From Thermoplasmatales archaeon SG8-52-3 (lineage in GTDB: Archaea; Thermoplasmatota; E2; DHVEG-1), in assembly GCA_001595915.1 (NCBI GenBank), contig LSSG01000053.1, positions 69,416 to 131,306 of the forward strand: 61,891 nucleotides of DNA, written 5' to 3'. Under the pieces are notes generated by a model. The model was not told where the DNA came from. It worked only from the letters and a program-made list of their open reading frames with translations, and ran no database searches. Each line of letters opens with the position of its first letter. Position 1 is the first letter of the stretch. A program made the translations under genes and the position numbers. This document shows, one piece after another, positions 3,721 to 52,393 of this stretch.

Positions 3721-3734
3721 TTAACTATAGTTAA
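3721..3734 (+). promoter_or_regulatory. TTAAC-N4-GTTAA palindrome downstream of TATA
   Basis: TTAACTATAGTTAA, a few nt after TTTATAT, upstream of the M14 peptidase gene. Confidence 0.65.
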
Positions 3735-3755
3735 TTTTAAGGGGGCAGCAATTTA

Positions 3756-6065
3756 ATGAACAATAAAAAAATTTCAATATTTATTTCAATTATATTTTTA
3801 ACAACAGCAATATTTGCAAATGGAATAAGTAGTAAATCCTTTGAAAATGAAAAATTAATATTAGTAAGAATCTTAACAGATTATAATAATTTACCAAGAG
3901 ATTTTGAAATAATTAGTATTCAACCAAATCAATGGATTGAGGTTATTATCACAAATAAACAAATCCACTATTTAGAGGACAATAATCTATTTTATGAAAT
4001 ATTAATTGAAGACATAATAGAATATGAAAACACTATTAGAGGAGAATACCATACTTTAGCAGAAATAGAATCTATTCTTGAAAACATAGCAGATAATTAT
4101 CCTGACATTACAAGTCTTTATAGCATTGGAACAACTTATGAAGGTAGAGATATTTGGTGTTTAGAAATTACTGATAATCCTGGAGTTGATGAAGGTGAGC
4201 CAGGTGTTTTTTTTATGGGACTACACCATGCTCGTGAATGGCCAACTGTTGAGATATGTCTATACGTTGCTAATCAATTAACATCTAAATATGGGTCTGA
4301 TCCTTCAATTACTAATATTGTCAATAACGTAAGATTATGGCTTGTTACATGTGTAAATCCTGATGGCTATTATTATTGTCATGATCAAGGTCATGATTGG
4401 CGTAAAAACCGTCAACCCTATTCGCCTTACATTGGTGTGGATCTTAATCGCAATTATGCAGGATCATCAAATGGTGATCCCTGGGGTTCATGGGGATCGG
4501 TAGATTCTGGATCAATTAGCAATCATCCTGATTCTGAAGTTTATTGTGGACCCTGGCCTTTCTCTGAATACGAAACACAAGCAATTAAAGATATATTCAT
4601 TAATAATGATATATCTGCTGCTATAAGTTGGCATACTCATGGAGAACTCGTTTTATGGCCATGGGGTTACTCATTTGAAAATGCTCCTGATACAGATTAT
4701 TTATCCCAGGTTGGCCAGCAAATCGCATCAAGAATCACTCGTCAGAGTGGAAGCGGAACTTATACACCACAACAAGCAGCTAATTTGTATCCTACAACTG
4801 GTGATACAATAGATTGGGCATATGGATATGGACATTATGTTTTGGGAAGACCTACATTTGCCTATACGATTGAGACTTGTTCAACTTTCCATCCATCTGA
4901 AGGTTATCTTGACCAAGTTTGTAAAGAAAATTTTGATGGCGCACTATATATCTTAGAGGAAGCTGAAAATATTAAAGATACAGTTTCAAAACGGGTAATA
5001 CCGCCAGTTATTGACGATATGGACGAAGATTCAGATGGAGATTATAATATTACCTGGGTTGAGCAAAATCCAAATGCTAATCCAACATTTTTTCAATTAG
5101 ATGAACTTACGGGTTTATCATTATCAACAGATAACGCTGAATCTGGAACAGATCAGTGGACTATTGAAGGTTTTACAATTTCTACTTCAAAATATCATTC
5201 ATCAAGTCATAGTTATAAATCTAGATATAAAGACCAAGATGTTTCATCCATGGTTACGGTAAATCCTATACCAATTAGTGTAGATATGAATCTAACATTT
5301 TGGTGTTGGTATGATATTGAGCAAGATTATGATTACGCATTTGTTGAAGTAAGTAGAGACGGGCGCATTTTTGATGTAATCGATAAATATACTGGTACAT
5401 CAGATGGTTGGGTTAACAAGAAATATTCCCTTGATGATTATATTGGTGATTCAATTTTTATCCGTTTAAGGTATATAACTGATGATTATACTCAAGAAGA
5501 AGGATTTTATGTTGATGATATCTATCCCATCGCTGAATTTGATATGGTAAATACGCTATCAGATACTATTACTGATAATTTTTATGAGATTTTTGATAAA
5601 CCTCAAGGTACATATTACTATCGAGTTAGAGGATATAATTCTGATTATGAGTGGGGAGACTTTAGTACAATTGAAGATATTGTTGTAAGTTTTGCTGGTG
5701 CACCAGAACAACCAGATATTGAAGGTCCAATAGAAGGAAAACCTGGAATAGAATACAACTATAGTTTTGTAACAAATGATCCAGAAAACGATGATGTTTA
5801 CTATTATATAGATTGGGGAGATAATCAGTTGGAAGAATGGATTGGTCCATATCAATCTGGTGAAGAAATAATTAAGAGCCATTCATGGAATGAAAAAGGT
5901 ACATATATCATTCAGGCTAAAGCAAAAGATACTTCTGAACATGAAAGTAATTGGGAAACATTTGAAGTAAAAATTCCGCGATCAAGACTTTTATCAAAAA
6001 TATATTTATTAGACCTTTTATATAAGATTCTATTAAAACTACCAATTTTTAATAATCTAAATTAA
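3756..6065 (+). CDS. Secreted M14 zinc carboxypeptidase with beta-sandwich, FN3-like and PKD-like domains and IPR tail
   Basis: Signal peptide; HHAREW, RKNR, GVDLNRN, WHTHG, TIE motifs; YYIDWGD PKD-like domain; ends KIPRSRLLSKIYLLDLLYKILLKLP. Confidence 0.9.
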   Translation: MNNKKISIFISIIFLTTAIFANGISSKSFENEKLILVRILTDYNNLPRDFEIISIQPNQWIEVIITNKQIHYLEDNNLFYEILIEDIIEYENTIRGEYHTLAEIESILENIADNYPDITSLYSIGTTYEGRDIWCLEITDNPGVDEGEPGVFFMGLHHAREWPTVEICLYVANQLTSKYGSDPSITNIVNNVRLWLVTCVNPDGYYYCHDQGHDWRKNRQPYSPYIGVDLNRNYAGSSNGDPWGSWGSVDSGSISNHPDSEVYCGPWPFSEYETQAIKDIFINNDISAAISWHTHGELVLWPWGYSFENAPDTDYLSQVGQQIASRITRQSGSGTYTPQQAANLYPTTGDTIDWAYGYGHYVLGRPTFAYTIETCSTFHPSEGYLDQVCKENFDGALYILEEAENIKDTVSKRVIPPVIDDMDEDSDGDYNITWVEQNPNANPTFFQLDELTGLSLSTDNAESGTDQWTIEGFTISTSKYHSSSHSYKSRYKDQDVSSMVTVNPIPISVDMNLTFWCWYDIEQDYDYAFVEVSRDGRIFDVIDKYTGTSDGWVNKKYSLDDYIGDSIFIRLRYITDDYTQEEGFYVDDIYPIAEFDMVNTLSDTITDNFYEIFDKPQGTYYYRVRGYNSDYEWGDFSTIEDIVVSFAGAPEQPDIEGPIEGKPGIEYNYSFVTNDPENDDVYYYIDWGDNQLEEWIGPYQSGEEIIKSHSWNEKGTYIIQAKAKDTSEHESNWETFEVKIPRSRLLSKIYLLDLLYKILLKLPIFNNLN

Positions 6066-6135
6066 AAATTATAAAAAAATAAAATAATATTTACATCATT
6101 AATACTCTTATTTTTTCTATAGAAAAATTTATTAT

Positions 6136-6149
6136 TTAACAATTGTTAA
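6136..6149 (+). promoter_or_regulatory. TTAAC-N4-GTTAA palindrome downstream of TATA
   Basis: TTAACAATTGTTAA right after AAAATTTATTA. Confidence 0.7.
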
Positions 6150-6178
6150 CTTTTAATTAAATTAAGGAGATATAAACT

Positions 6179-7393
6179 ATGAAAAAAATTTTCCCAATAG
6201 TAATAATTACAATGCTTGTAATCATTGGAATGCAAGCTGGTGCTCTAACTAACTCAAATGAAGTTATGTTTATTAAAGATTATAAAGAAGGTACTACTGA
6301 AAGAGCAACCCACACTGTTCTTGGTGAATATGGTACAGCCACATGGTGTGGATATTGCAGATATGCACATGGTGCATTAAAAGAATTGTATTCAGAGGGG
6401 CAGTTGGATTTTTATTATATTACTCATGTATCTGATATGAATAGTAGATCCTCTTCTTATCTTGCTAGCCATTATAATCTATATGGATATCCTACTGTAT
6501 GGTGGGATGGTGGATATAAAATAAACATTGGTGCTGGAAGTGTTCCAAGTGCAAAAAGTGCATACACATCTAGTATTAATTCTTGTTTAAACAGAGCCGT
6601 TGATGATGTAAATTTAAATCTAGCAATGACCTGGCTTGATGGTACTAAAATGAAAATAGATTGTACAGTAATCAATAACGAAGGGAGTACTTATGGTGGG
6701 ACAATACAAGTCGCCATTTGTGAAAAGGTATCTAGTAGAGGTTGGATAGATACAGGTGGAGTAACCTATACTATGACTTTTCTTGATTGGGCATTTAAAG
6801 AGTCTTTATCAATTTCTAGTGGTGGATCTTGGAGTGATACAATTACATGGGATGGATCATCTCATGGATATCCTACTGTTACAAAAGAAAATACAATAAT
6901 TATTGGCGCTGTGTATAATGATGAATGGCATCAAGGTTATTCATATACTCCTCCACAAAATCCATTTGATGCTTATTATGTAGATGATTGTGTTGCAGTA
7001 GAAGCTGGAGGGAGCTCAAGTGAACCTCCTAATCCACCTGCAATAGATGGACCAACTAATGGTGTTATGGACATTGAATATGATTTTATTTTTAATTCAG
7101 AGGACCCAGATGGCGATGATGTTTCCTTCTATATATTGTGGGGAGATGGTTACGTCGACTCAACTTCTTATTCACCTACTGGAACAGATGTAATTGTATC
7201 ACATATATACACAAAGGAAAAAACATTTACAATTCAAGCAAAAGCAATTGACAGTAATGGTGTTGAAAGTAATTGGTCAGAATTTGAAATTACAATTCCT
7301 AGAACAAGACAAAACTATAATTACCTGTTTAATCTTTTGTTAGAAAAATTCCCGAATTTATATTTAATTTTAAAGCAACTTATTAAAATATAA
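6179..7393 (+). CDS. Secreted Omp28-like thioredoxin-fold (CxxC) protein with PKD-like domain and IPR tail
   Basis: Signal peptide; EYGTATWCGYC and YGYPTVWWDG (cis-Pro loop); ILWGDG; ends TIPRTR..LLEKFPNLYLILKQL. Confidence 0.75.
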   Translation: MKKIFPIVIITMLVIIGMQAGALTNSNEVMFIKDYKEGTTERATHTVLGEYGTATWCGYCRYAHGALKELYSEGQLDFYYITHVSDMNSRSSSYLASHYNLYGYPTVWWDGGYKINIGAGSVPSAKSAYTSSINSCLNRAVDDVNLNLAMTWLDGTKMKIDCTVINNEGSTYGGTIQVAICEKVSSRGWIDTGGVTYTMTFLDWAFKESLSISSGGSWSDTITWDGSSHGYPTVTKENTIIIGAVYNDEWHQGYSYTPPQNPFDAYYVDDCVAVEAGGSSSEPPNPPAIDGPTNGVMDIEYDFIFNSEDPDGDDVSFYILWGDGYVDSTSYSPTGTDVIVSHIYTKEKTFTIQAKAIDSNGVESNWSEFEITIPRTRQNYNYLFNLLLEKFPNLYLILKQLIKI

Positions 7394-7447
7394 ATTCATT
7401 TTTTCTTCATTTTTTATATAATTTTGGTCTAACGAAAAATTTATAAT

Positions 7448-7461
7448 TTAACAATTGTTAA
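7448..7461 (+). promoter_or_regulatory. TTAAC-N4-GTTAA palindrome downstream of TATA
   Basis: TTAACAATTGTTAA right after AAAATTTATAA. Confidence 0.7.
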
Positions 7462-7490: not shown

Positions 7491-8963
7491 ATGAAAAAAA
7501 TAATACCAATATTGATTGTAGGAATATTTTTCCTATCTAGTTTTGGAGCTGTTGCATTCAAAGTTGAGCAAGAAATAGACGAAACCCGAGAATTTACACA
7601 TAGTGTATTTGCAGAATATGGTACAGCCACATGGTGTGGATATTGTAAATATGCACATGCAGCATTAAAGAAAATTTATGCAAGTGGTGATTATCCATTT
7701 AATTTTGTTTCACTAGTTTGTGATAAAAACACAGATGCTTCTGCCAGAGCAACTGAATATAACCTTTATGGATATCCAACTGTATGGTTTGACGGAGGTT
7801 ATAAAGTAAATGTTGGAGGTAGTTCTGGTAGTGAATCTGCATATAGATCAAGTATAAATTCATGTGGAAGTAGAGAAGTAGAGGATATTGATATAGATTT
7901 ATCAGCCACATGGTTAGGTGGAACAGAAGTAAATATCGCTATTACAGTTCACAACAACGAAGCAACCACTTATGGTGGACATGTTCGTGTTTATATTACA
8001 GAAATTGCATCAAGTATGGGATGGAAAGATACAGGTGGTTACTTGTATACATTTCCGTTTTTAGATTGGGCATTTAATCAAGCACTTTCAATTAACGCGG
8101 GAGGCCAATGGTCTGATTCAATGAACTGGGATGGTTCAGCAAATGGTTTTCCATCAGTAACTGAGGATAATCTAATGATTTTTGCGGCAGTATTCAATGA
8201 TGAATGGAACCAAGGTTATTCATATCCACCATCCGGAAATCCATTTGATGCATATTTTGTAGATGAATCTGCTTCATATCGTGTTGGTGATAACAGAGCA
8301 CCAAACACACCAAGCAGTCCAAATCCATCAGATGGAAAAACAAATGTAGATATTAATGCAGACATGACCTGGCAAGGAGGCGACCCAGATTGGTTTGATA
8401 CAGTAACTTACGATATCTATTTTGGTACAACAAATCCACCACCACTAGTTGAATCAGATACTGAAGATACAACATATGATCCAGGAACTCTTGAATATGA
8501 AACAATATACTATTGGCAAATTATTGCAACTGACCCATCAGAAGTTACATCTGAAGGTCCTGTCTGGGAATTTTCAACTGAGGCAAATTATCCTCCATCA
8601 ACTCCAGAGATTACTGGACCATCAAGAGGAATACCTGGAACTCAATATAGTTTCACATTTGTTTCAGAAGATTCAGACGGCTATGATGTATACTTCTATG
8701 TAGACTGGGGCGATGGAACTTTTGAAGAATGGGAAGGCCCATTTCCTTCAGGTAACATATATAGGGTAGGTCATACCTGGGATGAAAAATCAACATATAC
8801 AATCAGAGCAAAAGCAAAAGATGTATTTGGTGCAGAAAGTGCTTTTGGATCATTTGAAATTGAAATACCAAGAAGTATAAATCCACACAAAACAATATTT
8901 GAAATATTGTTTGATCGTTTTCCAAATGCATTTCCAATACTGAGACAAATACTTGGATTATAA
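7491..8963 (+). CDS. Secreted Omp28-like CxxC protein, tandem paralog, with extra FN3-like domain, PKD-like domain and IPR tail
   Basis: EYGTATWCGYC; GGDPD..YDIYFG..YYWQI domain; VDWGDG; ends EIPRS..LFDRFPNAFPILRQILGL. Confidence 0.75.
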   Translation: MKKIIPILIVGIFFLSSFGAVAFKVEQEIDETREFTHSVFAEYGTATWCGYCKYAHAALKKIYASGDYPFNFVSLVCDKNTDASARATEYNLYGYPTVWFDGGYKVNVGGSSGSESAYRSSINSCGSREVEDIDIDLSATWLGGTEVNIAITVHNNEATTYGGHVRVYITEIASSMGWKDTGGYLYTFPFLDWAFNQALSINAGGQWSDSMNWDGSANGFPSVTEDNLMIFAAVFNDEWNQGYSYPPSGNPFDAYFVDESASYRVGDNRAPNTPSSPNPSDGKTNVDINADMTWQGGDPDWFDTVTYDIYFGTTNPPPLVESDTEDTTYDPGTLEYETIYYWQIIATDPSEVTSEGPVWEFSTEANYPPSTPEITGPSRGIPGTQYSFTFVSEDSDGYDVYFYVDWGDGTFEEWEGPFPSGNIYRVGHTWDEKSTYTIRAKAKDVFGAESAFGSFEIEIPRSINPHKTIFEILFDRFPNAFPILRQILGL

Positions 8964-16072: not shown

Positions 16073-16164
16073 ATAAAATCTTTTTCTTTTATTTTTTCAT
16101 AAAAATTAGGTAAAAATTATTGAATTTATACAATTTTATTAAAAATAAGCGAAAAGATTATAAA

Positions 16165-16178
16165 TTAACACGTGTTAA
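16165..16178 (+). promoter_or_regulatory. TTAAC-N4-GTTAA palindrome abutting TATA
   Basis: GCGAAAAGATTATAAA followed directly by TTAACACGTGTTAA. Confidence 0.75.
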
Positions 16179-16205: not shown

Positions 16206-17273
16206 ATGAAAAAAATCTCAAACCGAGCTGGCATATTGCTTATAGCAACAGCAATGATTTTATCAGCTGTAGCTGTAACAGCAGACACAGAAGAGCAAAC
16301 CATAGGTGTAAACTGCAGTATAGGCAGCGGATCCGTCCCCGGAGCCATTGGACCAGTTGTATGGGATAACGATATGGACTTTACAGGTCTCGGCGCAGCA
16401 CAGAAGGATACCAATTATCCTTTCCATGCAGAATGTGCTGACGACTTCCACTTTGATGAAGATACAGAAGTAGAAGACGTACACTGGGTTGGTGGTTACT
16501 GGCAAGATGGTTACGCAAGTGCTCACTGGCCATGGGAAATAACATTTTATAATGACCGTGGTGATGGTGAAGCACCTGGTGATGTCTTTGCAGGACCCTT
16601 TGAAGTTGACAACACACAATATACAGAAGAGTTGATTCAAGACACTGGAACATCTATTTACTACACATATTCTGTAGTTTTAGATGAATCAATTATATTC
16701 CCAGCCTGTACAAAGTTCTGGATCACAATACGAGGTGTTGGATTCTTCCCACCACAATCTGGTTGGGGATATCATGATACCATTCTATTGTGGGAAGCTG
16801 TTTTCAGATCAGAACTTCTGGGATACCCAGAGTGGACTGACTCTACACTAGTATGGGGCGCTGCAAAAGATATGGCATTCCAGCTAACTGGCCCATTAGG
16901 ACCCGTTGCACCAACACCACCAGATATTGATGGTCCAGGTGAAGGTCCTGCTGACACAGAGATTTGTTGGACATTCCACTCAAGCGATGAGAATGGCGAT
17001 TTGGTCAAATACTTCATCGATTGGGGAGATGGAACATCTGATGAAACAGATTACAACAATCCATGTTCACCAGTTGAAGTTTGCCACACCTATGCAAAGG
17101 GAGAATACACAATAACAGCCTATGCAGAAGACGAGACTGGATTACAGAGCGGTTCTAGTACTTTTGATATAATTATACCAAGAGCTAGATCTGTCTATCA
17201 TCCACTAGTCGTTAGGTTGTTTGAACGTTTTCCAAATGTTTTCCCAATACTAAGACAACTTCTTGGTCTGTAA
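16206..17273 (+). CDS. Secreted protein, WDN..ADDF..WxGGYW beta-sandwich + PKD-like domain + IPR tail
   Basis: Signal peptide; paralog of 33358..34449; FIDWGDG; ends IIPRARSVYHPLVVRLFERFPNVFPILRQLLGL. Confidence 0.78.
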   Translation: MKKISNRAGILLIATAMILSAVAVTADTEEQTIGVNCSIGSGSVPGAIGPVVWDNDMDFTGLGAAQKDTNYPFHAECADDFHFDEDTEVEDVHWVGGYWQDGYASAHWPWEITFYNDRGDGEAPGDVFAGPFEVDNTQYTEELIQDTGTSIYYTYSVVLDESIIFPACTKFWITIRGVGFFPPQSGWGYHDTILLWEAVFRSELLGYPEWTDSTLVWGAAKDMAFQLTGPLGPVAPTPPDIDGPGEGPADTEICWTFHSSDENGDLVKYFIDWGDGTSDETDYNNPCSPVEVCHTYAKGEYTITAYAEDETGLQSGSSTFDIIIPRARSVYHPLVVRLFERFPNVFPILRQLLGL

Positions 17274-28668: not shown

Positions 28669-28820
28669 AATGTGGTTTGCCCCATGTTTATAATATTTTT
28701 ATTATTTTGTTAGTATATAATTCTTTTGGATATAAATAAGTTTATAAGTACATGAATATTTAATGTTTTTATAAAATAGTATATAAATTTATTGCTTATT
28801 AAAAGCGAAAAGGTTATAAA

Positions 28821-28834
28821 TTAACAACCGTTAA
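28821..28834 (+). promoter_or_regulatory. TTAAC-N4-GTTAA palindrome abutting TATA
   Basis: GCGAAAAGGTTATAAA followed directly by TTAACAACCGTTAA. Confidence 0.72.
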
Positions 28835-28908
28835 ATATATTGGAAAGAGGTGATGACACGTCGTCGGTGTTTTCATCAAAAAATGTCAACAGACGGGGGA
28901 GGTGAAAT

Positions 28909-29616
28909 ATGAAAAGAGCCGTTCTACCGATTCTCGTAATAGCGATACTATTAATCGTTCCAGCTATTCCTGCTCTGAAAAATACAGAAAAACCAGTCGA
29001 AGATACAGAAGTAATGAACATAATTATTGGAAATGATGAACAAGGACTTACTCATCAAAAGATGACAATAGAAAAAGCTGGAGTAGACCTATTTGTTGAT
29101 AATGTGAAGGGATTCCAAACCTGGTTACAGGAAAACAAACCATTTAGAGATTTTAAATTCACTGAAGAAGAGAAAGATGCAATAAAATCTCATGTAAACA
29201 CAATAGTATTATCATTGAACAATGTTCTACAAGCAAATGGTTATGATCCAATATCATCTGATTGGCTGTACCAGGAATTATTTGAGACCGAGGTTGATAG
29301 AAGCACCATAATTAGCATGGGCATGGGATATGCATATATACCATTCTATGACTATGAAACATTCCTCGGAATTATGATTCGACCAATATGGTTATTCTAC
29401 CCACCAATATTCCTAGGAGGTGGTGGTTACACGGGTAACTTTAATATTAATTTGTTACCAGGTCGAGTCGAATTTGGTGACAGACTCGGTTTTCATATAG
29501 CAAGAACAACTATATTCTCTGGTCTATACATTAACGTTGGAGAACTTGGTTACGACAGAATATTCGGCGGCATGATTATGCTATTAGGCCGAGCACGAGT
29601 CGTAATATTAGATTAG
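28909..29616 (+). CDS. Secreted hypothetical protein (IPFYDYETF family)
   Basis: GGAGGTG RBS, signal peptide, paralog of 27976..28668. Confidence 0.72.
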   Translation: MKRAVLPILVIAILLIVPAIPALKNTEKPVEDTEVMNIIIGNDEQGLTHQKMTIEKAGVDLFVDNVKGFQTWLQENKPFRDFKFTEEEKDAIKSHVNTIVLSLNNVLQANGYDPISSDWLYQELFETEVDRSTIISMGMGYAYIPFYDYETFLGIMIRPIWLFYPPIFLGGGGYTGNFNINLLPGRVEFGDRLGFHIARTTIFSGLYINVGELGYDRIFGGMIMLLGRARVVILD

Positions 29617-33258: not shown

Positions 33259-33326
33259 TTTTTTTAATAAATTTAATATAAAACTTTATATTCATATAAG
33301 TTTATATTTAGCAAAAAGATTATAAA

Positions 33327-33340
33327 TTAGCAATCGTTAG
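33327..33340 (+). promoter_or_regulatory. Degenerate TTAAC-N4-GTTAA site abutting TATA
   Basis: GCAAAAAGATTATAAA followed by TTAGCAATCGTTAG; same promoter layout as paralog 16206. Confidence 0.55.
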
Positions 33341-33357: not shown

Positions 33358-34449
33358 GTGATAACAAAAATGAAAAAAATCTCAAGTTTATTAGTATTAA
33401 TATTCATTGCTTTTTCTTTAATTCTATCAACTATTGTTGTAACTGCATATCAAGAAAATAATAATTCAATTATTAATTTAAATTTATGCGATGAATCTTC
33501 TCTTTTAGGTACTTTAGGTACAATAGTATGGGACAATGGAATGGATTATTCTGGTTTAATATATTCACAATGGGATGAAAATAAACAATTCGATTTCTAT
33601 ATTGTTGATGACTTTTATTTTGAAGAAGAGGCAGAAATTTCAGATGTATACTGGATAGGTGGTTATTGGGGTCAAAATTACGAATCAGGTAATTTCGATT
33701 GGTCAATATCATTTTATTATGATAATACAAGCGAAGGAAAACCTGATGGTCACCCATATTCTCCTAGTTTTGCAGGACCTTATCTATTTACTTGGATTGA
33801 AATTAATAAGGAGATTCTTTATAACTCTGGTAATTCTATCTACTATAAATTTTGGATTAATTTACCAGAAATCATCAAATTTGAAGCAAACAAAAAATAC
33901 TGGATCAGCATTTGGGCTGAAGGAAGTTACCCTCCACAATCTGGTTGGGGCTATCATAAGAGTATACTTTTAAATGCATCATTATTAGGTTCAGACTATT
34001 TTAGTTTTCCATTTTGGACACCTGGAATTGATGTGCAAGGTTTTGACTTTGATATGGCATTTCAATTATCAGAACCAATTGGACCTTTACCACCTAATCC
34101 CCCTTACATTGAGGGGCCTAGAGAAGGACGTGCTAAAACAAAATTATGTTGGACATTTCAGTCTGAAGATATGAATGGTGACGCAATCAAATATGTAATT
34201 AATTGGGGAGATGGCAGCATTAATGAAACTGATTATAATTCATCCTATGACCCTATAGAATTATGCCATACTTATAGTAAAAATGGAGTTTATGCAATAA
34301 TTGCTTATGCTGAAGATGAAACAGGATTAAAAAGCAATGAAAGTACTTTTGGTATATCAATACCAAGATATCGAGAACTTAATAAATATTTACAATTAAT
34401 TTTTGAACAATTCTCAATGCTTAATAGAATTCTAAATTTTTTGAGATAA
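33358..34449 (+). CDS. Secreted paralog of 16206..17273, PKD-like domain + IPR tail
   Basis: WDNGMDY..VDDFYF..WIGGYW; INWGDG; ends SIPRYR..FEQFSMLNRIL. Probable ATG start 33370. Confidence 0.78.
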   Translation: MITKMKKISSLLVLIFIAFSLILSTIVVTAYQENNNSIINLNLCDESSLLGTLGTIVWDNGMDYSGLIYSQWDENKQFDFYIVDDFYFEEEAEISDVYWIGGYWGQNYESGNFDWSISFYYDNTSEGKPDGHPYSPSFAGPYLFTWIEINKEILYNSGNSIYYKFWINLPEIIKFEANKKYWISIWAEGSYPPQSGWGYHKSILLNASLLGSDYFSFPFWTPGIDVQGFDFDMAFQLSEPIGPLPPNPPYIEGPREGRAKTKLCWTFQSEDMNGDAIKYVINWGDGSINETDYNSSYDPIELCHTYSKNGVYAIIAYAEDETGLKSNESTFGISIPRYRELNKYLQLIFEQFSMLNRILNFLR

Positions 34450-34846: not shown

Positions 34847-34860
34847 TTAACTATTGTTAA
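34847..34860 (+). promoter_or_regulatory. TTAAC-N4-GTTAA palindrome downstream of TATA
   Basis: TTAACTATTGTTAA about 9 nt after GAAAAGATTTTATAA. Confidence 0.68.
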
Positions 34861-34909
34861 GATTTATATACATTAATTATATTATTATATTAAAGGAGGC
34901 AACGAATTA

Positions 34910-36631
34910 ATGAACAAAAAAAACAATTTATTAAGTAAAACTTTAATCTTAAGTTTAACTTTATTGTTTATCGGAGCTAGTACTATACCAAACATTAGTG
35001 GATATGAAAATAAAACAAGAACTACGATGATAAAGGAAGTTTCTTCAGTTACTATTGATGAAGACGATTATGTAAATATTTTTTTGAAGTTTGATGAGGG
35101 TAATGGTAACACTGCAGGTGATTCTTCAGGCCATGATTATGATGGAACAATATATGGGGCTTCATGGACTACTGGAAAATATGGTTATGCACTGGATTTT
35201 GATGGAACAGATGATTATATCGACCTAGATGAACATACAAAAAATAAATTAGGTATTAATAAAACAGATGATTTGTATTTATCATTTTATTTTAGATCAT
35301 CTTCAACAAATAGGGGTATTATCTATAGTATGTGCAGAGGAGACTCCTATGGTTATAATCCAGGATTTCATGTTGCTATTACATCGGAAGGTAAAATTGA
35401 AGTACAGGTATGGCGTCTGAGTTGTGGAGTTCTAACTTGGTCCAATAATAGTTATAATGATGGTTCATGGCATTTCGTTGAAATTTATTATAACGGTATT
35501 CAAGATAACCCATTTGTAAAAATTGTTGTAGATGGAGATTTAGATCACACATTTAAAAAATATATATGTGATTTTTTTGGCGATCAATTTAGATATTGTC
35601 AAATAGGTAGACATAGTCATGAATTAATTGATTATTTTGATGGTACTTTAGATGAATTTAAAATAATTAAATATCCAGGGGGAAACGAACAATATCCTCC
35701 AGTCGTTACTGGCCCAATAACAGGACAACCAGGTATTGAATATGATTTTACCTTTTCAATTGATGACCCTGAAGGAGATTCTGTAATGCTATATATCAAC
35801 TGGGATGATGGAAATATTGAGGAACTTGGACCTTTTGAACCAGGTGAAGATGTTATAGTAAGTCATACATGGAATGTGGATGGGAGTTATGAAATTAAAG
35901 CAAAATGTTATGATATATGGGATGATAGTAGATACTCAGATATACATTTAATAAGAATTGGAGATCAAGCACCAGATAGACCTATTATAACTGGACCTAA
36001 ATATGGAGATCCACAGGAAGAACTAACATACACATTTGTTTCTTCAGACTATGAAGGAGAAGATATTAAGTATTACGTAGATTGGGGTGATGGTACAACA
36101 ACAGAAACAGATTATGTCCCATCGAATACTGAAGTAGAATTGTCACATAGTTTTCCATCAAATAATGATTATTATATGAGAGCAAGAGCAATAGACATAA
36201 AAAACAAAATTGGAGAATGGGAAGAATACCATATACGAATAGGGGATAAACCACCAAATAATCTAAAAATATATGGAGCAGTACAAGGAGTTCCTGGTGT
36301 CAAATATCAATATGCTTTTGTAGCATATGATCCAGAAGATGATAATTTAACATATGATATAGATTGGGGAGATGGCGATATTGAAACAGATATCGGACCA
36401 ATACTATCAGGTGAGATTTTAGTAAAAAAACACTCATGGAATCGAACACGTAACTATGTAATAAAAGTTCGTGTTAAGGATGAATTTGATTACTATACTC
36501 CTGGTTGGACGGAATTTGATGTTATCATACCACGAAGCAAAGTGTTAAATTTTAACTTATTAGACCTTTTATTCGAACGATTACCTTATAGGGGCACTAT
36601 AATTAAATATCTATTTAAGATGATTAACTAA
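34910..36631 (+). CDS. Secreted LamG/concanavalin-like protein with three PKD-like domains and IPR tail
   Basis: FDEGNGNTAGDSSG..ALDFDG..WHFV..FDGTLDEFKI; three W(D/G)DG domains; ends IIPRSK..LFERLP. Confidence 0.8.
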   Translation: MNKKNNLLSKTLILSLTLLFIGASTIPNISGYENKTRTTMIKEVSSVTIDEDDYVNIFLKFDEGNGNTAGDSSGHDYDGTIYGASWTTGKYGYALDFDGTDDYIDLDEHTKNKLGINKTDDLYLSFYFRSSSTNRGIIYSMCRGDSYGYNPGFHVAITSEGKIEVQVWRLSCGVLTWSNNSYNDGSWHFVEIYYNGIQDNPFVKIVVDGDLDHTFKKYICDFFGDQFRYCQIGRHSHELIDYFDGTLDEFKIIKYPGGNEQYPPVVTGPITGQPGIEYDFTFSIDDPEGDSVMLYINWDDGNIEELGPFEPGEDVIVSHTWNVDGSYEIKAKCYDIWDDSRYSDIHLIRIGDQAPDRPIITGPKYGDPQEELTYTFVSSDYEGEDIKYYVDWGDGTTTETDYVPSNTEVELSHSFPSNNDYYMRARAIDIKNKIGEWEEYHIRIGDKPPNNLKIYGAVQGVPGVKYQYAFVAYDPEDDNLTYDIDWGDGDIETDIGPILSGEILVKKHSWNRTRNYVIKVRVKDEFDYYTPGWTEFDVIIPRSKVLNFNLLDLLFERLPYRGTIIKYLFKMIN

Positions 36632-36645
36632 GGGAGGTAAAAAAG

Positions 36646-38574
36646 ATGAAAAAGAAAATAATAGGAATTTTTGTTTGTTTACTTTTAATTGTTGCTACTG
36701 TTATACCTGTTGCTGGAAATATAAAAAGAGAATCTACTACTCCAATATTTGCTATAAATACATCTGTTGATAAAATATCTTCATATAATGTATATTCTGT
36801 ACCTTTAGCAATATCTGTTACTGGACCAAGCGATTTATCTGAGGTAGGATTATATTATAGATGGAGCAGAGACAATGAAACTTGGTCAGGAGTTCAAAAG
36901 TATTCAATTTTTGAAGGATTTGAGTCAGGTACTCAAAATACAAGTCTATGGAATACATATCAAACAGGGGGAGATGCTAGAATTCAATTTGACTTTACAA
37001 ATGCTCACAGTGGGGCTTTTTCATGTGCTATGGATGATTTCGATTCTCAACAATTTGATTACTCTTTAAATGTTATTTACACAAAATTTGACTTTACTGA
37101 CGCTACTGGTATAAGTATCGATTTTTGGGAACGAGAATGGGGAGATGAATCAAATCCAGCTCCAGACCAATGGTCAGGTTGGGGAAATTATGATGTTGTC
37201 GCTTATACAAATGATGGAGATACTTGGTTTGAGATAGTTCCTGAATCAGTTTTAGATAATCAAGTATTTACACAAATTGAATATAACATATCTGATGATG
37301 ATAATTTCGAATCACCAGCCGACAGTAATTTTGCAATACTGTTTTCCCAATATGATAATGTTCAACTAACAAATGATGGACGTGCTTGGGATGATATCAC
37401 TATTGAATACTCTTTCGGTAAACCAAGTGTAAACTGGTCATTGTGGAATAACCCTAATAATCCTGATTTATTTTATCCATGGTATTGGGATTTTAACTTC
37501 CCAAATGGTACTGGTTATTATGAATTTTATAGCATTGGTAAAAAACCTGGAGAACCTGATGAGGCTCCACCACTCACAGCTGATACGATATGTAGATATA
37601 ATAGACGACCAGATATTTTTAATGAAAAACCAGCAAATGGAACCAAAAATGTAGATCTCAAACCAGAACTAGAGATATCTATTAGTGACGAAGATGGTGA
37701 AACAATGAACCTAACTTGGATTAGTAACAGCAGCGGTTCATGGAAAGCATTTGCAAGTGACTTAAATGTTGAAGATGGAACCTACTATTTTACCAATAAT
37801 AATTTTAGTGAATTTGATACTACATATTGGTGGTATTTAAAAGTTACAGATGGTATTTATACGGTAAATAGCCCGATTTTCCATTTTACGACTGAAAAAA
37901 ACCTTCCTCCATATACTCCAAGTAATCCTACGCCCGAAGATGGAGAAGTAGGTGTATCCATTCAAGAGATTCTTACTTGGTCCGGTGGAGATCCAAATCA
38001 GGGTGATAAAGTATATTATGATGTATACTTAGGCACCTCTAGTTCTCCGCCACTTGTTGCTGAAAATATACTACAGAACGCTTACGATCCTGGTACCTTG
38101 GAAGTAGATACAACATATTATTGGCAAATTGTCTCAGAGGATAGTCAAGGAGAAACCACTTCTGGATCAATTTGGAGTTTCACAACAGAAGCGGAAGCAA
38201 ATTATCCACCAACATCACCAAAAATTTATGGTTCACCAAATGCCCCTCCTGGAAAGGAATTATGCTGGGCTTTGATTTCAGATGATCCAGATGATCACGA
38301 GGTGAAGTATATTATAGATTGGGGTGATGGAAACTCTGTTGAAACAGATTATTATCAAGACGAAATGGCAATAGAAGAATGCCACACTTATACTGAAGAG
38401 GGCGAATACATAATTGTTGCAATATCAGAAGATGAGAAAGGACTTCAGAGCGAACAAGCTAAATTTGTAATTAAAATTCAAAAACCTAGATCGGTATTTC
38501 ATCCATTGCTACTACGGATACTTGAACGAATGCCAATGCTGGAAAGACTTCTTAAATTAATTAGAGCATTTTAA
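36646..38574 (+). CDS. Secreted multi-domain protein (beta-sandwich, Ig, FN3-like, PKD-like) with PR tail
   Basis: Signal peptide; GGDPN..YDVYLG..YYWQI; IIDWGDG; ends KPRSVFHPLLLRILERMPMLERLL. Confidence 0.78.
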   Translation: MKKKIIGIFVCLLLIVATVIPVAGNIKRESTTPIFAINTSVDKISSYNVYSVPLAISVTGPSDLSEVGLYYRWSRDNETWSGVQKYSIFEGFESGTQNTSLWNTYQTGGDARIQFDFTNAHSGAFSCAMDDFDSQQFDYSLNVIYTKFDFTDATGISIDFWEREWGDESNPAPDQWSGWGNYDVVAYTNDGDTWFEIVPESVLDNQVFTQIEYNISDDDNFESPADSNFAILFSQYDNVQLTNDGRAWDDITIEYSFGKPSVNWSLWNNPNNPDLFYPWYWDFNFPNGTGYYEFYSIGKKPGEPDEAPPLTADTICRYNRRPDIFNEKPANGTKNVDLKPELEISISDEDGETMNLTWISNSSGSWKAFASDLNVEDGTYYFTNNNFSEFDTTYWWYLKVTDGIYTVNSPIFHFTTEKNLPPYTPSNPTPEDGEVGVSIQEILTWSGGDPNQGDKVYYDVYLGTSSSPPLVAENILQNAYDPGTLEVDTTYYWQIVSEDSQGETTSGSIWSFTTEAEANYPPTSPKIYGSPNAPPGKELCWALISDDPDDHEVKYIIDWGDGNSVETDYYQDEMAIEECHTYTEEGEYIIVAISEDEKGLQSEQAKFVIKIQKPRSVFHPLLLRILERMPMLERLLKLIRAF

Positions 38575-38679
38575 GTTAATGTTCTAATCAATATTTAAGG
38601 GTTAATTCTAAATATTTGGATATTATAAAACAAGATAAAAATCTTGATATTTACCCTATTTAAATAAAAGTTTATATAT

Positions 38680-38693
38680 TTAACAAATGTTAT
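38680..38693 (+). promoter_or_regulatory. Near-consensus TTAAC-N4-GTTAA site abutting TATA
   Basis: AAAAGTTTATATA then TTAACAAATGTTAT. Confidence 0.55.
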
Positions 38694-38714: not shown

Positions 38715-39893
38715 TTGGGGAATAAAATGAAAAAAAAATATAGTGCTATTACTACTATATTATTATTTTTCATATTGCTGATTAGTTTTAATAATATTAA
38801 TACTAGTGCAGAACAAGAAATTAGCTCCAAATTAAATGAATTATCACCACTAAATTTCACAGATAATTTACCTTATGAAGGTTTTTTGCGTATCTATATA
38901 GTTGAACCCGATTCACGTTGGAACATGTATAATGGTCGACCATATCACTATGGATTTATTGATTTTGCTTATGAAGGAGCTTTATCAATTGATTATCTTG
39001 ACAGTTACCAAGATTCTATTACCTGGATAGGTGATGTTACAGAGGATAATGTTTTTGTAATTGCTGTAATCTTTAATCCAACTGCAAATATCGGTTATTC
39101 TTTTCCTCCTAGTTCTAAACCATTTGATGCCTATTATGTAGATGCAACAGCATCAGCTCATCCAGGGGAAAACGGATATAATATACGCGATGAAAACTTT
39201 ACTCATACAGTATTTATCGAGGAAGGGACTGGTACATGGTGTAAAAACTGCCCATCTGCTGCTGATTCATTATATAATCTTTCTAAATCTTCGACTATTC
39301 CTTTTTATTATGCAGCTATGGTTGAGGATATGAACAGTGCTGCACAAAAAAGACTTGAAGAAGATTACAACATTTTTGGATATCCAACACTTTATTATGA
39401 CGGTGGAAAAGAAGTACTTTTAGGTGGTGGGAACAGCGATGAGTATATTGAATCCTTGATTGAATCTTGTGCAGAAAGTGATGTTCATGAGCTTGATTTA
39501 AATCTAACAGTCTCATGGCAAGGTGATGGTGAACTAAAAATTGATTATAAAATTATAAACCTTGAAGAAATAATTCCACCTCAGTTTTATATTCAAAAAA
39601 TATATGGCGGAATAAAGAAAGTAAACGTATTTGTAGAAAACACTGGAGATAACAATAGTTATAATGTAGATTGGGAAATATCAATTACTGGCGGATTCTT
39701 GGGTAGAGTTAATTCAATATCCAATGGAACTATTGACGAATTTCCTAGTGGTGAAGCAAAGTTAATTAGATCAAAGGGACAGTTATTTCAACCCTTTGGT
39801 TTTGGAAATATTGAAGTTATTGTGAAAATAGGTACAAATATTGAGAAATTTAATTGCTTCATTTTTGGTCCATTCATTATTGTTAATATATAA
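38715..39893 (+). CDS. Secreted circularly permuted Omp28-like CxxC protein with GG/GFG C-terminal domain
   Basis: YEGFLRIYIVE..PFDAYYVD block precedes FTHTVFIEEGTGTWCKNC..GYPTLYYDGG; ends GGIKKV..GGFLG..FGFG..FGPFIIV. Probable ATG start 38727. Confidence 0.75.
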   Translation: MGNKMKKKYSAITTILLFFILLISFNNINTSAEQEISSKLNELSPLNFTDNLPYEGFLRIYIVEPDSRWNMYNGRPYHYGFIDFAYEGALSIDYLDSYQDSITWIGDVTEDNVFVIAVIFNPTANIGYSFPPSSKPFDAYYVDATASAHPGENGYNIRDENFTHTVFIEEGTGTWCKNCPSAADSLYNLSKSSTIPFYYAAMVEDMNSAAQKRLEEDYNIFGYPTLYYDGGKEVLLGGGNSDEYIESLIESCAESDVHELDLNLTVSWQGDGELKIDYKIINLEEIIPPQFYIQKIYGGIKKVNVFVENTGDNNSYNVDWEISITGGFLGRVNSISNGTIDEFPSGEAKLIRSKGQLFQPFGFGNIEVIVKIGTNIEKFNCFIFGPFIIVNI

Positions 39894-49700: not shown

Positions 49701-50058
49701 TTTCCTCTGGTAATAATTTTCTTCTACTAAGTACTATTGCCTGAGTTCGTCTATATCTAAAAATAATATCTGCTTTATCATTTTGAATATCCCAGGGTTT
49801 AATAATTATCAAGTCACCGGCCCTTACCCTTTGTTTTCTTTTCATTCTACCAGGTATACGAGCCATTCTGGATTTGCCATCGGCACAAACAACGTTTATT
49901 CTTGAACCGCCCATTAACCTCTCAGCTATTGCAAACATCTCGTTTTTATCTCTTTTTGGCAATGGAAGTCTAATATACTCTTCGTCAGGACCTTCTTGAT
50001 ACACCAAATCACAATCTCTTAACCTGTACACTGATATAAGGTTATAAACTTTTACCAA
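49687..50058 (-). CDS. eif1a: Translation initiation factor aIF-1A
   Basis: LMGGSRINVVCADGKSRMARIPG..GDLIII.PW..KADI..RY. True start is probably TTG 50007 or GTG 50004. Confidence 0.93.
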   Translation of the reverse strand: MVKVYNLISVYRLRDCDLVYQEGPDEEYIRLPLPKRDKNEMFAIAERLMGGSRINVVCADGKSRMARIPGRMKRKQRVRAGDLIIIKPWDIQNDKADIIFRYRRTQAIVLSRRKLLPEEIDVF

Positions 50059-50067
50059 AAATAAAAC

Positions 50068-50622: not shown

Positions 50623-50693
50623 TTAATTTTTGTAAGTATCTTTTTAATATTTATATTTTCGTAAGAAAAAAATTAATTAAACTTAAATATTAT

Positions 50694-52274
50694 TTAATCA
50701 GCCCAAGCTCCTTGAAATGATTTTAAATCAAGATTGCTCCAATCGTCATGATCGTTTCTACCACGGGAGCCATCAGAATAATCAACCAACCTATATGTGT
50801 AACCATAATTCATACAACTTTTATAGGCAAGAAATTTCGTCCAATATATCCAGTCTAATATAAAACTATTAAATTGCTGATGACCTCCAGGAATATAGAT
50901 ATTTAATGTATGGCCAAGTTCATGCATATAAACACTTGCGTAAGCTGTATCTCTTCTTTTTTCACCTGGAAATTTATGTTTATCATCTACTCTTTTACTT
51001 GAAATTTGAAAAGCTCCCCAGTATGAATCCTCTGTATCAAAAACAAAACCTGCATATCCACCCCAATATATAACTATTCCATAATGGAAAACTCCTCTTC
51101 TCCAGTTATTTTTTCCTCCATGTAAGAAATAATCTTGGTATATTTGTGGAAGTTCATCTCTATCTAAATCTTCATCAAAAGGTATCCATTCTCCTCCACC
51201 CATACATCCATCATCTATATGTAGAAAAATATTTTGCTTGTCAAATGCATCTCTAAGCATATCCTTTGCGCCTTCTCCTAAATAACTAGCTGGTTCTCCA
51301 TTTGGTCCTGCTTCCATTTGATCAAGTTCAACAAAAATATCCCTTCTAAATGGATCAGTTCCCCATTCAGACATAAGATACTCTTCTATATTATTTAATC
51401 CATCGTTGTCTGGATCTAAATGTTCATGGTCTTCTGCTTCAAATGGATGATAAAACCAATAAAATTCGTAAGTACCTTGATGCCAATTATACCAGATTAG
51501 ATTACCCCATTTATGCTCCCACTCTATAGGAACTCCATCATTATCATCATCTCTTCCGGTATCATCTACCTCAGGATCTGTACCATAAACGTTTACTTCA
51601 GTCCAATAAGGTATTCCATCTCCATCATAATCATTTTGGGTTATATCAAAAAGCACTAAGCAATCTCTATCTCTTTGATACATACTATTATCGTCACATC
51701 CATTCAGTCTTCCATATCCACTAAAATCAGTCCAAGCAGAATCTGGATATATGAAATCATCACCTGTCCAATGTCCAGTTTTTAAATTATATTCTAATTC
51801 TACGTCTCTTTTTGCCCTAAAAATCTCATTATTTTCACTAAGATCGCATAGTTTATCTAATAGAGGGTACTTATCCCATAATTGAATTTTTATCGAAACA
51901 TTTTCAATAGTATCATTAACATCAGCAGTAGCTGACCAACTTTCATTTACATATTTTTGATTGCGCCAAGTTTTACTTTTAAATACCTCATCATTGATGA
52001 AAACTTTTACATAAAAATCTGGTTTACCTAGTATATTTATTTTATCAAGGGCACGTATTTCTTTAATAGTAACAGTAACTTCTAAATCAACAAGTGGGTC
52101 AATATTTTTATCATCTTTATTAGATATTACTAGAAGACCATTATCTATTGAATTTATTAATCTCTTAGTTTCATTTTGTGTAGAATCTATTGATATTTTT
52201 AAAGCTGACACATTAACTGATATTAAAAGGAAACAAACAATAGTTAATAACAATATTTTTTGTTTTATTTTCAT
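50694..52274 (-). CDS. Secreted zinc metallopeptidase-like protein with C2-like domain and Asp-rich Ca-binding repeats
   Basis: Signal peptide; PDFYVKVFI; DYDGDGIP, DDDNDGVP, DPDNDGL repeats; MHELGHTL (HExxH). Confidence 0.72.
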   Translation of the reverse strand: MKIKQKILLLTIVCFLLISVNVSALKISIDSTQNETKRLINSIDNGLLVISNKDDKNIDPLVDLEVTVTIKEIRALDKINILGKPDFYVKVFINDEVFKSKTWRNQKYVNESWSATADVNDTIENVSIKIQLWDKYPLLDKLCDLSENNEIFRAKRDVELEYNLKTGHWTGDDFIYPDSAWTDFSGYGRLNGCDDNSMYQRDRDCLVLFDITQNDYDGDGIPYWTEVNVYGTDPEVDDTGRDDDNDGVPIEWEHKWGNLIWYNWHQGTYEFYWFYHPFEAEDHEHLDPDNDGLNNIEEYLMSEWGTDPFRRDIFVELDQMEAGPNGEPASYLGEGAKDMLRDAFDKQNIFLHIDDGCMGGGEWIPFDEDLDRDELPQIYQDYFLHGGKNNWRRGVFHYGIVIYWGGYAGFVFDTEDSYWGAFQISSKRVDDKHKFPGEKRRDTAYASVYMHELGHTLNIYIPGGHQQFNSFILDWIYWTKFLAYKSCMNYGYTYRLVDYSDGSRGRNDHDDWSNLDLKSFQGAWAD

Positions 52275-52379
52275 ATTTTTTCACCTTAATTTTTTCTTTA
52301 TTTATTCATATTATTATTTTATATTTAAAATTTGCTAAATTATATTAAATTTTAATTATTTTTTAATTCATTATTTAAG

Positions 52380-52393
52380 TTAACTATCGTTAA
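52380..52393 (-). promoter_or_regulatory. TTAAC-N4-GTTAA palindrome downstream of TATA (minus strand)
   Basis: TTAACTATCGTTAA, preceded on the minus strand by TTTATAAT; upstream of the 52274 gene. Confidence 0.6.

Follow-up and report, generated by a model that had tools for sequence, protein, structure and literature searches.

The window, a stretch of 61,891 nucleotides, carries seven exact copies of the palindrome TTAAC-N4-GTTAA and two imperfect ones, all of them near core promoters (BRE/TATA) of genes for secreted or exported proteins. BRE/TATA boxes were scored with a matrix trained on the genome, and transcription starts are predicted. The sites and genes are as follows:

3721-3734: palindrome TTAACTATAGTTAA, 4 nt past BRE/TATA 3702-3716, with the ATG 21 nt downstream
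3756-6065, plus strand: secreted M14 zinc carboxypeptidase with InhA-like MAM domain and C-terminal tail (Pfam PF00246, E=2.8e-71; signal-peptide-like N-terminus)
6136-6149: TTAACAATTGTTAA, a perfect 14-bp palindrome adjoining BRE/TATA 6121-6135
6179-7393, plus strand: secreted thioredoxin-like and PKD protein (signal-peptide-like N-terminus; Pfam matches weak, E about 3e-4, under the Pfam cut-off)
7448-7461: TTAACAATTGTTAA, adjoining the consensus BRE/TATA CGAAAAATTTATAAT at 7433-7447
7491-8963, plus strand: secreted thioredoxin-like and PKD protein, paralogue of 6179-7393
16165-16178: TTAACACGTGTTAA, adjoining BRE/TATA 16150-16164
16206-17273, plus strand: secreted PKD-domain protein with C-terminal tail
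28821-28834: TTAACAACCGTTAA, adjoining BRE/TATA 28806-28820, with the ATG 74 nt downstream
28909-29616, plus strand: exported 235-aa protein without Pfam match
33327-33340: TTAGCAATCGTTAG, two arm mismatches, adjoining BRE/TATA 33312-33326 in the promoter of 33358-34449
34847-34860: TTAACTATTGTTAA, right arm coinciding with the BRE of the top-scoring BRE/TATA, 34856-34870
34910-38574, plus strand: two co-directional exported-protein genes, 34910-36631 (PKD) and 36646-38574
38680-38693: TTAACAAATGTTAT, one arm mismatch, 1 nt downstream of BRE/TATA 38664-38678
38715-39893: exported-protein gene downstream of site 38680
50694-52274, minus strand: exported protein with C2-like domain
52380-52393: TTAACTATCGTTAA, 43 nt upstream of the minus-strand BRE/TATA 52322-52336 of gene 50694-52274

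An earlier note on this DNA had described the seven exact sites and the near matches at 33327 and 38680, each placed 0-10 nt downstream of a TATA box and upstream of a secreted-protein gene. Both sets were recovered at these positions, and all seven exact sites precede such genes. The spacing holds for five of the seven (0 nt at 6136, 7448, 16165 and 28821; 4 nt at 3721) and for the near matches (0 nt at 33327, 1 nt at 38680), but not for 34847, where the box lies downstream and the right arm takes the BRE position, nor for 52380, which lies 43 nt upstream of the BRE. The assignment of the latter site to gene 50694-52274 is supported by a conserved site that precedes the orthologue in a different genus (G005). 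The two genes behind site 34847 probably form a single operon. A 19-codon upstream frame lies between site 28821 and the ATG of 28909-29616. Gene 33358-34449 is a paralogue of 16206-17273, and site 33327 is probably a decayed or weak operator copy.

The motif in the genome and its relatives

The exact motif is far more frequent than expected by chance. The window's seven copies compare with 0.17 expected, and none of 100 dinucleotide shuffles reached seven. The whole 1.9-Mb genome (G000) contains 47, of which 43 are intergenic against 0.93 expected under an order-2 Markov model of intergenic DNA, while the four in coding sequence are at expectation (3.5). When the same arms were combined with spacers of N0 to N9, N4 gave 47 genomic matches and every other length between zero and five. 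Among the 47 exact sites both arms are invariant, and the spacer shows a symmetric preference, with A at positions 6-7 and T at positions 8-9; invariant arms with such a spacer are what a two-fold symmetric protein dimer is expected to cause. Sequences with one mismatch, taken as a class, are not enriched (31 versus 28.4 expected), and site 38680 was therefore judged by its position alone. This lack of a one-mismatch excess is unusually sharp for a transcription factor regulon and counts against reading the motif as an operator. Similarity extending past the motif edges, as a repeat, a MITE-like mobile element or a duplicated promoter would leave, was sought, and the flanks are unrelated at most sites. 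One subclass of four to six promoters is an exception, having about 30 nt of downstream sequence in common.

The motif is tied to fixed places relative to BRE/TATA, as are the operators of archaeal transcription factor regulons. Its offset from TATA ranges from -43 to +20 nt, in discrete classes. Among the well-scored promoters of the genome it lies 0-6 nt downstream of TATA in ten, 10-12 nt in four and 18-20 nt in two, so that 16 of 26 have it between TATA and the predicted start. In about a third of them it lies over or upstream of the BRE: the right arm takes the BRE position in two (and in three more promoters under the score cut-off), and in five promoters the motif adjoins the BRE from the upstream side. 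The core promoters of motif genes are strong, with a median of 9.5 bits versus 5.8 for other genes (p=3e-8).

Signal-peptide-like N-termini were found in 34 of the 42 adjacent genes, versus 24% genome-wide (Fisher p=9e-15), and the C-terminal tail that many exoproteins share is encoded by 21 of the 42 (odds ratio 20, p=4e-16). Pfam domains on the targets include M14 (two), C25 (three), M28 (two), C1, PKD, PQQ propellers, NosD and others. These data support a peptidase-rich regulon of exported proteins comprising about 40 transcription units. The regulon is narrower than the whole secretome, taking in just 21 of the genome's 103 proteins with the C-terminal tail (about 20%), and a few small non-secreted proteins also belong to it.

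Motif counts were compared with those of a reversed control pattern in 30 relatives of the genome. Members of the same genus have 39-55 sites versus 7-15 for the control, and in other genera of its Thermoprofundales/MBG-D family the count reaches 32 at most. In genomes outside this family counts are about zero to three per genome, with the exception of one genome of the same order (G024), which has nine. Members of the genus and of several further genera in the family share the excess, which does not extend beyond the family. In G005 (genus g3) the sites again lie behind TATA boxes of exported-protein genes, including homologues of C25, M28 and M14 peptidase targets. The site of the M14 gene (3721) is exact in the orthologous promoters of G001 and G005 and has one mismatch in G003; it is kept in genera g1 and g3 and missing in four others. 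Absence from orthologous promoters in some genera counts against the operator reading.

The earlier note had proposed a dimeric operator between TATA and start through which one repressor controls the extracellular proteolysis and surface regulon, and had suggested genome-wide enrichment and conservation as checks. Enrichment, positional bias towards BRE/TATA and the excess in relatives all came out in its favour, and the sites bear the marks of a dimeric operator: invariant arms, symmetric spacer, an essentially intergenic location and coupling to BRE/TATA. Its placement between TATA and start applies to most promoters and fails for the third just described; its regulon is borne out in the exported, peptidase-rich targets and has to be narrowed for the tail proteins outside it and the few non-secreted members.

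A candidate regulator

The same note had named regulators of TrmB or Lrp type as examples. These were set aside in favour of an uncharacterised helix-turn-helix (HTH) protein of XRE type, the best candidate and a new element beyond the earlier observation. Its gene lies outside the window, on the minus strand of contig C19 (18726-19061), and encodes 110 aa with a conserved cluster of cysteines: C8, C91, C94 and another one or two in the C-terminal part. A profile built from 90 homologues matches PDB 28tn, a lambda repressor-like HTH (E=2.5e-6). The protein itself scores 19 bits against a Pfam HTH_3 cut-off of 23, which distant relatives pass (e.g. 24.2 and 31.6), and no curated family matched it above threshold. 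Its AlphaFold model has a pLDDT of 88, and the best Foldseek neighbours are XRE proteins, headed by ClgR, C.BclI, HigA and DdrO, at non-significant values (E>=0.2, TM 0.3-0.45).

In 13 of 14 orthologues, representing 12 genera, the palindrome (at most one mismatch) is directly followed by TTATAAGTA and lies 30-32 nt upstream of the start codon; it is kept despite diverged flanking DNA. Nine genomes have an extra exact distal site near this gene, 10-11 nt behind a divergent BRE/TATA. The region beside the gene also contains a deeply conserved pyrimidine box, resembling an anti-Shine-Dalgarno sequence, in a putative divergent small RNA. The two in-family genomes that lack the protein (G009, G015) contain the smallest numbers of sites, one and two, and genomes with four to six paralogues have 25-55. 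Genome size and AT content confound this relation of site number to paralogue number, and the control pattern tracks paralogue number almost as well. Comparative evidence of this kind suggests that the candidate binds the motif, and it is probably the regulator of the regulon.

The conserved site on its gene would also be expected if the gene were just a target of another factor. We consider it rather unlikely that the palindrome is a real operator bound by such a factor, with the XRE-type cysteine protein just a conserved regulon member. Genes for regulators are often controlled by other regulators, genome size confounds the phyletic correlation, and two further small non-secreted proteins, an 85-aa ORF and a 54-aa protein with four cysteines, also keep a site across genera; moreover, G010 has a motif excess although its sole homologue of the candidate is distant and without a site. 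Against this, a search for other DNA-binding genes with a conserved site found none, the 85-aa ORF shows no signature of DNA binding and is missing from genera that retain the motif excess (G007, G010, G012, G014, G016), short palindromes are typically read by XRE-fold dimers, and the site is fixed on the TATA box of the XRE-type gene in 12 genera.

Proposed mechanism and known systems

Taken together, we moderately favour the reading in which a sequence-specific transcription factor, probably a dimer and most likely the XRE-type protein, binds the motif as its operator and acts mostly as a repressor. A dimer bound just downstream of TATA or over the predicted start would bar recruitment of RNA polymerase, and the otherwise strong target promoters would stay repressed until a signal, possibly metal or redox perceived through the cysteines, frees the factor. 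On the candidate's own leaderless gene the right arm replaces the BRE and lies against TATA, an arrangement that would give negative autoregulation. A strictly conserved palindrome on the promoters of about 40 secreted-protease and surface-protein genes and on that of the probable regulator makes this look like a classical gene switch. Thermoprofundales are among the most abundant archaeal groups of marine sediment, and the switch would govern extracellular protein digestion by these uncultured archaea. A more elaborate version, in which a cysteine cluster holding Fe-S or Zn makes the XRE protein a metal- or redox-sensing master switch of extracellular proteolysis and an operator-driven divergent small RNA adds a translational arm, seems to us unlikely.

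It is only from site position that we infer repression here; taken with the likeness to TrmBL1 described below, this makes it plausible. [quoted passage not shown] That it is chiefly an activator or a dual regulator, recruiting TFB/TBP from the BRE side and having another role at downstream sites, appears quite improbable: the site adjoins the BRE from upstream in five promoters, takes the BRE position in five (two well-scored) and lies 43 nt upstream in one, but 16 of 26 well-scored promoters have a site between TATA and start, and the near-consensus BRE/TATA of motif promoters is unlike what activator-dependent promoters typically show. To our knowledge, a protein bound between TATA and start blocks the polymerase in every tested archaeal case. 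Activation from BRE-side positions is described for TrmBL1 (PMC4706686) and TFB-RF1 (PMC5937170).

We give very little credence to a basal element for an alternative TFB or TBP, a by-product of promoter duplication or a target of restriction-modification or methylation. Sites are closely coupled to BRE/TATA and clear paralogous promoters exist (the class ...GTTAAggaaatatttaaatt and the pair 16165/33327), yet the TATA offset varies over the full range given above, the motif is two-fold symmetric whereas basal elements are directional, and the flanks, unrelated at most sites, speak against duplication; since coding frequency equals expectation, the motif is neither avoided nor selected like a restriction target. 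A 5'-UTR hairpin tagging mRNAs of secreted proteins is scarcely credible, for although sites lie near ribosome-binding sites and some at or past the predicted start (offsets 18-20), the hairpin is barely stable (-0.2 to -0.8 kcal/mol), none of the 47 perfect-arm sites has a compensatory arm change, one-mismatch forms occur at chance frequency, the majority of sites precede the predicted start or TATA itself, and Rfam matched none of four loci examined where a site has no evident gene downstream.

The preferred reading, an operator with a mostly repressing XRE-type factor, has its closest counterpart in TrmBL1 of Pyrococcus furiosus, whose TGM operator is TATCAC-N5-GTGATA; about three quarters of its sites lie directly downstream of BRE/TATA, where it represses by preventing the recruitment of RNA polymerase; from the remaining sites, which lie upstream, it activates (PMC4706686). 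Both have a palindromic operator locked to the core promoter with a similar spread of positions. Unlike TrmBL1, in which a TrmB-type winged helix is joined to a sugar-binding domain, our candidate is a small XRE-type HTH protein with a cysteine cluster; the motif differs, the regulon consists of secreted peptidases and exoproteins rather than sugar metabolism, and the system is known from sequence alone. The box of NssR, a Crp/Fnr family protein of Campylobacter jejuni, is TTAACnnnnGTTAA (Rodionov et al. 2005, PMC1274295), with the identical consensus TTAAC-N4-GTTAA and the same 5-N4-5 geometry. NssR, unlike the factor proposed here, is bacterial and activates a globin of the nitrosative stress response. 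In the genome (assembly 79% complete) no protein matched PF13545 above cut-off; of the two weak HTH_Crp_2 matches, one is an HTH-riboflavin kinase and the other a DtxR-type repressor, and neither is Crp/Fnr. The identity of the two motifs is convergence.

XRE and lambda-type repressors bind as dimers to 14-17-bp palindromes and commonly autoregulate, and one of them, ClgR, controls protease genes. The candidate shares their HTH fold by profile (434, lambda cI/Cro, restriction-modification C-proteins, ClgR); unlike them it is archaeal, has no close solved relative, and appears to have a long helix at its N-terminus and, at its C-terminus, helices tied by the conserved cysteines. SurR of P. furiosus, a winged-helix protein of the hydrogenase and sulfur response, recognises GTTn3AAC and is a dual regulator whose effect is set by site position relative to BRE/TATA; the chemistry of its CxxC redox switch controls DNA binding. 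This is a possible parallel to the conserved cysteines of the candidate, for which a redox or metal switch is conjecture; fold, motif and regulon are different. In its cis logic the system is solidly an archaeal operator regulon of an already known kind, that of TrmBL1 and its TGM.

Excess, geometry and conservation of the palindrome

The seven exact copies of the 14-bp palindrome TTAAC-N4-GTTAA listed in the earlier note are all present in the window, where 0.17 are expected from dinucleotide shuffling and not one of 100 shuffled sequences reached seven; its two near matches also exist as strings, with one arm mismatch at 38680 and two at 33327. A scan of the whole assembly of the source genome G000 (1.91 Mb, 84 contigs, 30% G+C), in which the window corresponds to C53:69416-131306, identified 47 exact sites, seven of which fall within the window because the latter is an island of exoprotein genes. 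According to a crude ORF-based gene call, 43 sites are intergenic, against 0.93 predicted by an order-2 Markov model of intergenic DNA, and four lie inside coding DNA, where 3.5 are expected; compared with random intergenic DNA, the motif is hence in excess. Spacer lengths of 0-9 nt gave 0-5 hits each, only N4 reaching 47, and the inverted arrangement GTTAA-Nx-TTAAC was not enriched at any spacer length in the same genome scan. The frequency of the motif thus greatly exceeds chance, its geometry is specific and its occurrence is restricted to intergenic DNA.

Invariance of the arms follows by construction from the exact-arm search. The spacer shows a symmetric preference, with A at positions 6 and 7 and T at positions 8 and 9, and the motif tends to be preceded by A and followed by T, thus the ideal site is (A)TTAACAATTGTTAA(T), which is fully two-fold symmetric. 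One-mismatch sites lack intergenic enrichment (31 versus 28.4 +/- 5.7 expected); such nearly all-or-none behaviour of the element is unusual in a regulon. RNA structure is not a serious reading, since the hairpin would contribute only -0.2 to -0.8 kcal/mol, perfect-arm sites show no compensatory arm changes and one-mismatch forms occur at chance level. Four loci around sites without obvious downstream gene had no match in Rfam.

The excess extends to relatives. Genomes of the same genus have 39-55 sites, versus 7-15 for the reversed control pattern, and 12-32 were counted in several further genera of the family; outside the family there are essentially none, except for nine in G024, a genome of the same order. 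All 32 sites of G005, which represents a different genus of the family, were examined: most lie behind TATA boxes and 14-90 nt ahead of genes whose starts are signal-peptide-like, and eight of the motif genes have a best G000 hit that is a motif gene too (C25, M28 and M14 peptidases, among others). The site at the window's M14 gene is kept in all three same-genus genomes that hold the promoter (in one with a mismatch) as well as in G005; it is absent in four other genera, two of which have the gene in an operon, behind a C25 gene. The regulon is hence conserved, and the turnover among its members is of the usual kind.

Promoter position and genes behind the sites

A BRE/TATA matrix trained on 484 upstream regions of G000 gave the consensus RGAAA-NN-TTTAWAWA, its 3' end most often being 35-45 nt from the start codon. 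Among well-scored boxes of motif promoters, distances from box end to site fall in discrete classes.

Position of the site relative to the core promoter (G000)
0-6 nt downstream of TATA: 10 promoters
10-12 nt downstream of TATA: 4 promoters
18-20 nt downstream of TATA: 2 promoters
Right arm in BRE position: 2 well-scored promoters and 3 below the score cut-off
Site end exactly at BRE start: 5 promoters
Further upstream: 3 promoters

Sites in the window
3721: 4 nt behind the box
6136: directly adjoining the box
7448: directly adjoining the box
16165: directly adjoining the box
28821: directly adjoining the box
34847: overlapping the BRE of a downstream box
52380: upstream of gene 50694-52274 (minus strand), 43 nt ahead of its BRE

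The placement 0-10 nt behind TATA that had been noted for every site consequently applies to 3721, 6136, 7448, 16165 and 28821, whereas 34847 and 52380 differ and positions are more varied overall. Archaeal transcription starts approximately 23 nt behind the box; if this applies here, most sites would cover roughly -22 to +12. Core elements are stronger in motif promoters (median 9.5 bits versus 5.8 for other genes, p=3e-8), with a matrix that had been seeded with ten motif promoters before re-estimation.

A signal-peptide-like start, consisting of a basic and then a hydrophobic stretch, was found in 34 of the 42 genes that start at most 150 nt from a site, versus 24% genome-wide (odds ratio 14, p=9e-15), by a heuristic that does not distinguish signal peptides from N-terminal membrane anchors.

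Pfam assignments among the targets
M14 carboxypeptidases: two
C25 gingipain-type peptidases: three
M28 peptidases: two
C1 peptidase: one
PKD-domain proteins and PQQ-type propellers: many
Thioredoxin-like/PKD proteins: weak matches, under the Pfam cut-off
Others: NosD/beta-helix protein, arylsulfotransferase, DUF362 and DUF4382 proteins

An HMM that we built of the C-terminal tail common to G000 exoproteins identified 103 proteins, of which 21 are encoded by motif genes (odds ratio 20, p=4e-16). Although strongly linked to the exoproteome, the regulon thus includes only about a fifth of it. The core of the earlier interpretation, a protein operator that defines a secreted-protein regulon, holds; its scope is narrower, with part of the exoproteome and a few small proteins of the cytoplasm as members.

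Several promoters and targets show additional features. In six exoprotein promoters of G000 (C53:38775, C60:8287, C60:11822, C70:7986, C79:27441 and C82:11623) the operator is combined with an abutting BRE/TATA (GGAAATATTTAAATT) and about 20 more similar bases, a pattern suggestive of a promoter module that was duplicated or is under special constraint; their 5' leaders are long, 60-75 nt. Between operator 28821 and the ATG at 28909 lies a 19-codon upstream frame (window 28835-28911, MTRRRCFHQKMSTDGGGEI) with its own Shine-Dalgarno sequence; its stop codon and the main start codon overlap (ATATGA), and a translationally coupled leader peptide is a possible product. The operator-linked exoprotein gene at C54:7729-7800 has a strong Shine-Dalgarno sequence, but none of the codons ATG, GTG and TTG is suitably spaced from it, and the gene appears to start at ATT (gggggattagaaATTaaaaag..., reading IKKKIAIILIFILIF). 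A 54-aa protein with four cysteines (MKVSLCIGDFCIPNKCPVVDVREDKVIIGEKDN...) is encoded behind a perfect operator in two genera (G000 C84, about 4190-4350, minus strand; G005 locus L060).

An 85-aa ORF with TTG start (G000 C71:8137-8422, locus L099; G013:C80:2328-2613; G005 locus L057/L104) has a perfect operator 14 nt upstream in three genera and occurs only in genomes richest in sites. Its N-terminal 35 residues and its C-terminus ...VFNVRGLI are conserved, and it has neither signal peptide nor Pfam match. As a candidate regulator it was rejected, given that it has no DNA-binding signature and is found in only three genera, but it was kept as a conserved target.

A candidate regulator of the XRE type

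A box identical to the motif is described for NssR, a Crp/Fnr protein of Campylobacter (PMC1274295), but a Crp/Fnr regulator was rejected since a family search identified no such protein in G000. Inspection of sites that do not precede exoprotein genes revealed a better candidate on contig C19.

Features of the C19 region (G000)
C19:18726-19061, minus strand: ORF of 112 aa containing a helix-turn-helix, with a perfect site 192 nt away
C19:19085-19105 (locus L069): near-palindrome GCAACAnATGTAACA upstream of this ORF
C19:19270-19470 (loci L069/L030): distal operator adjoining a conserved divergent promoter; orthologous loci L070-L073 and L078-L081

Translation probably begins at the third codon of the 112-aa ORF, so that the protein would have 110 aa. 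Among homologue loci taken from 30 relatives, 13 of 14 orthologues (12 genera) are preceded, 30-32 nt before the start codon, by an exact or one-mismatch site; the distance implies a leaderless mRNA with the right arm of the operator in BRE position. This proximal site reads TAAACAATCGTTAA in this genus, has exact arms in several other orthologues and is directly followed by TTATAAGTA, although the surrounding DNA has diverged. An exact distal site, 142-192 nt upstream of the gene and 10-11 nt behind a conserved divergent BRE/TATA, is kept in nine genomes of seven genera. A G005 paralogue has two exact sites; the paralogue at C32:54310 has none upstream.

The near-palindrome GCAACAnATGTAACA, which precedes the proximal operator by 21 bp or two helical turns, is conserved in several genera and may be an auxiliary low-affinity site. 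Behind the divergent promoter, a stretch of about 190 nt ends with T-runs ahead of an AGOG-like DNA glycosylase gene and includes a single-copy, 25-nt pyrimidine box, ATCCCATCCTTTCCTCCTCTCCTCA, which resembles an anti-Shine-Dalgarno sequence and is conserved in nine genomes of seven genera. The stretch has no conserved ORF, no Rfam hit and, on either strand, no RNAalifold consensus structure, so it is a possible operator-controlled small RNA.

Searches of the protein against Pfam and NCBIfam gave no match above cut-off, and its close homologues, from Thermoplasmatota MAGs, are named at most 'transcriptional regulator'. At E<=0.001 the family comprises 765 cluster representatives. A profile built from 90 members matched a lambda-repressor-like HTH structure (E=2.5e-6), and distant members exceed the Pfam HTH_3 cut-off. 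AlphaFold gave a pLDDT of 58 with close homologues only, too low to use, and a confident, all-helical model (pLDDT 88) with a diverse alignment. Foldseek found no significant neighbour of the latter, its best, non-significant hits being XRE proteins (ClgR, C-proteins). Conservation within the family is 83-94% for residues C8, C91 and C94 and 73% for a further C-terminal cysteine; the sequences suggest a metal site that would join the N-terminus to the C-terminal helices. The likely regulator belongs to a new XRE-type family and is not of the TrmB or Lrp type, which the earlier note gave as examples of archaeal repressors.

The two family genomes without the protein (G009 and G015) have the fewest sites, one and two, and genomes with four to six paralogues have 25-55. 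The number of motifs correlates with that of paralogues (rho 0.81), but similar correlations were obtained for genome size and for the control pattern, so this phyletic distribution supports a regulatory role weakly.

Proposed mechanism, meaning and relation to known systems

The best-supported reading is an autoregulated, dimeric XRE-type factor on exoprotein promoters, for which we infer binding, sign and signal. The operator would overlap the polymerase-binding part of strong exoprotein promoters, where the bound factor may repress by blocking polymerase recruitment, and the BRE-overlapping site on its own gene would confer negative autoregulation. The five promoters with a site just upstream of the BRE are possibly activated instead.

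Thermoprofundales (MBG-D) are uncultured and globally abundant, and are proposed to degrade detrital sediment protein with secreted peptidases (for example PMC6461988 and PMC9123169). The present analysis provides a concrete, testable regulatory code in the form of one exact 14-bp operator, predicts for each genome about 40 exoprotein genes under common control, and names a candidate regulator whose expression and testing require no culture of the organism. It thereby gives a probable function and DNA target to a family of small HTH proteins of archaea that had been uncharacterised. The value is mainly that regulation of extracellular proteolysis in uncultured, abundant archaea becomes directly testable.

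Since this kind of system is well known and classical, specialists would find it useful rather than surprising. Its closest likeness is to TrmBL1, for which in vitro and ChIP-seq data showed that sites downstream of TATA repress and upstream sites activate (PMC4706686). Repression by polymerase blocking is, by this analogy, a plausible but unproven form of regulation here: sites predicted from sequence to overlap the polymerase-binding region resemble the repressing sites of TrmBL1.
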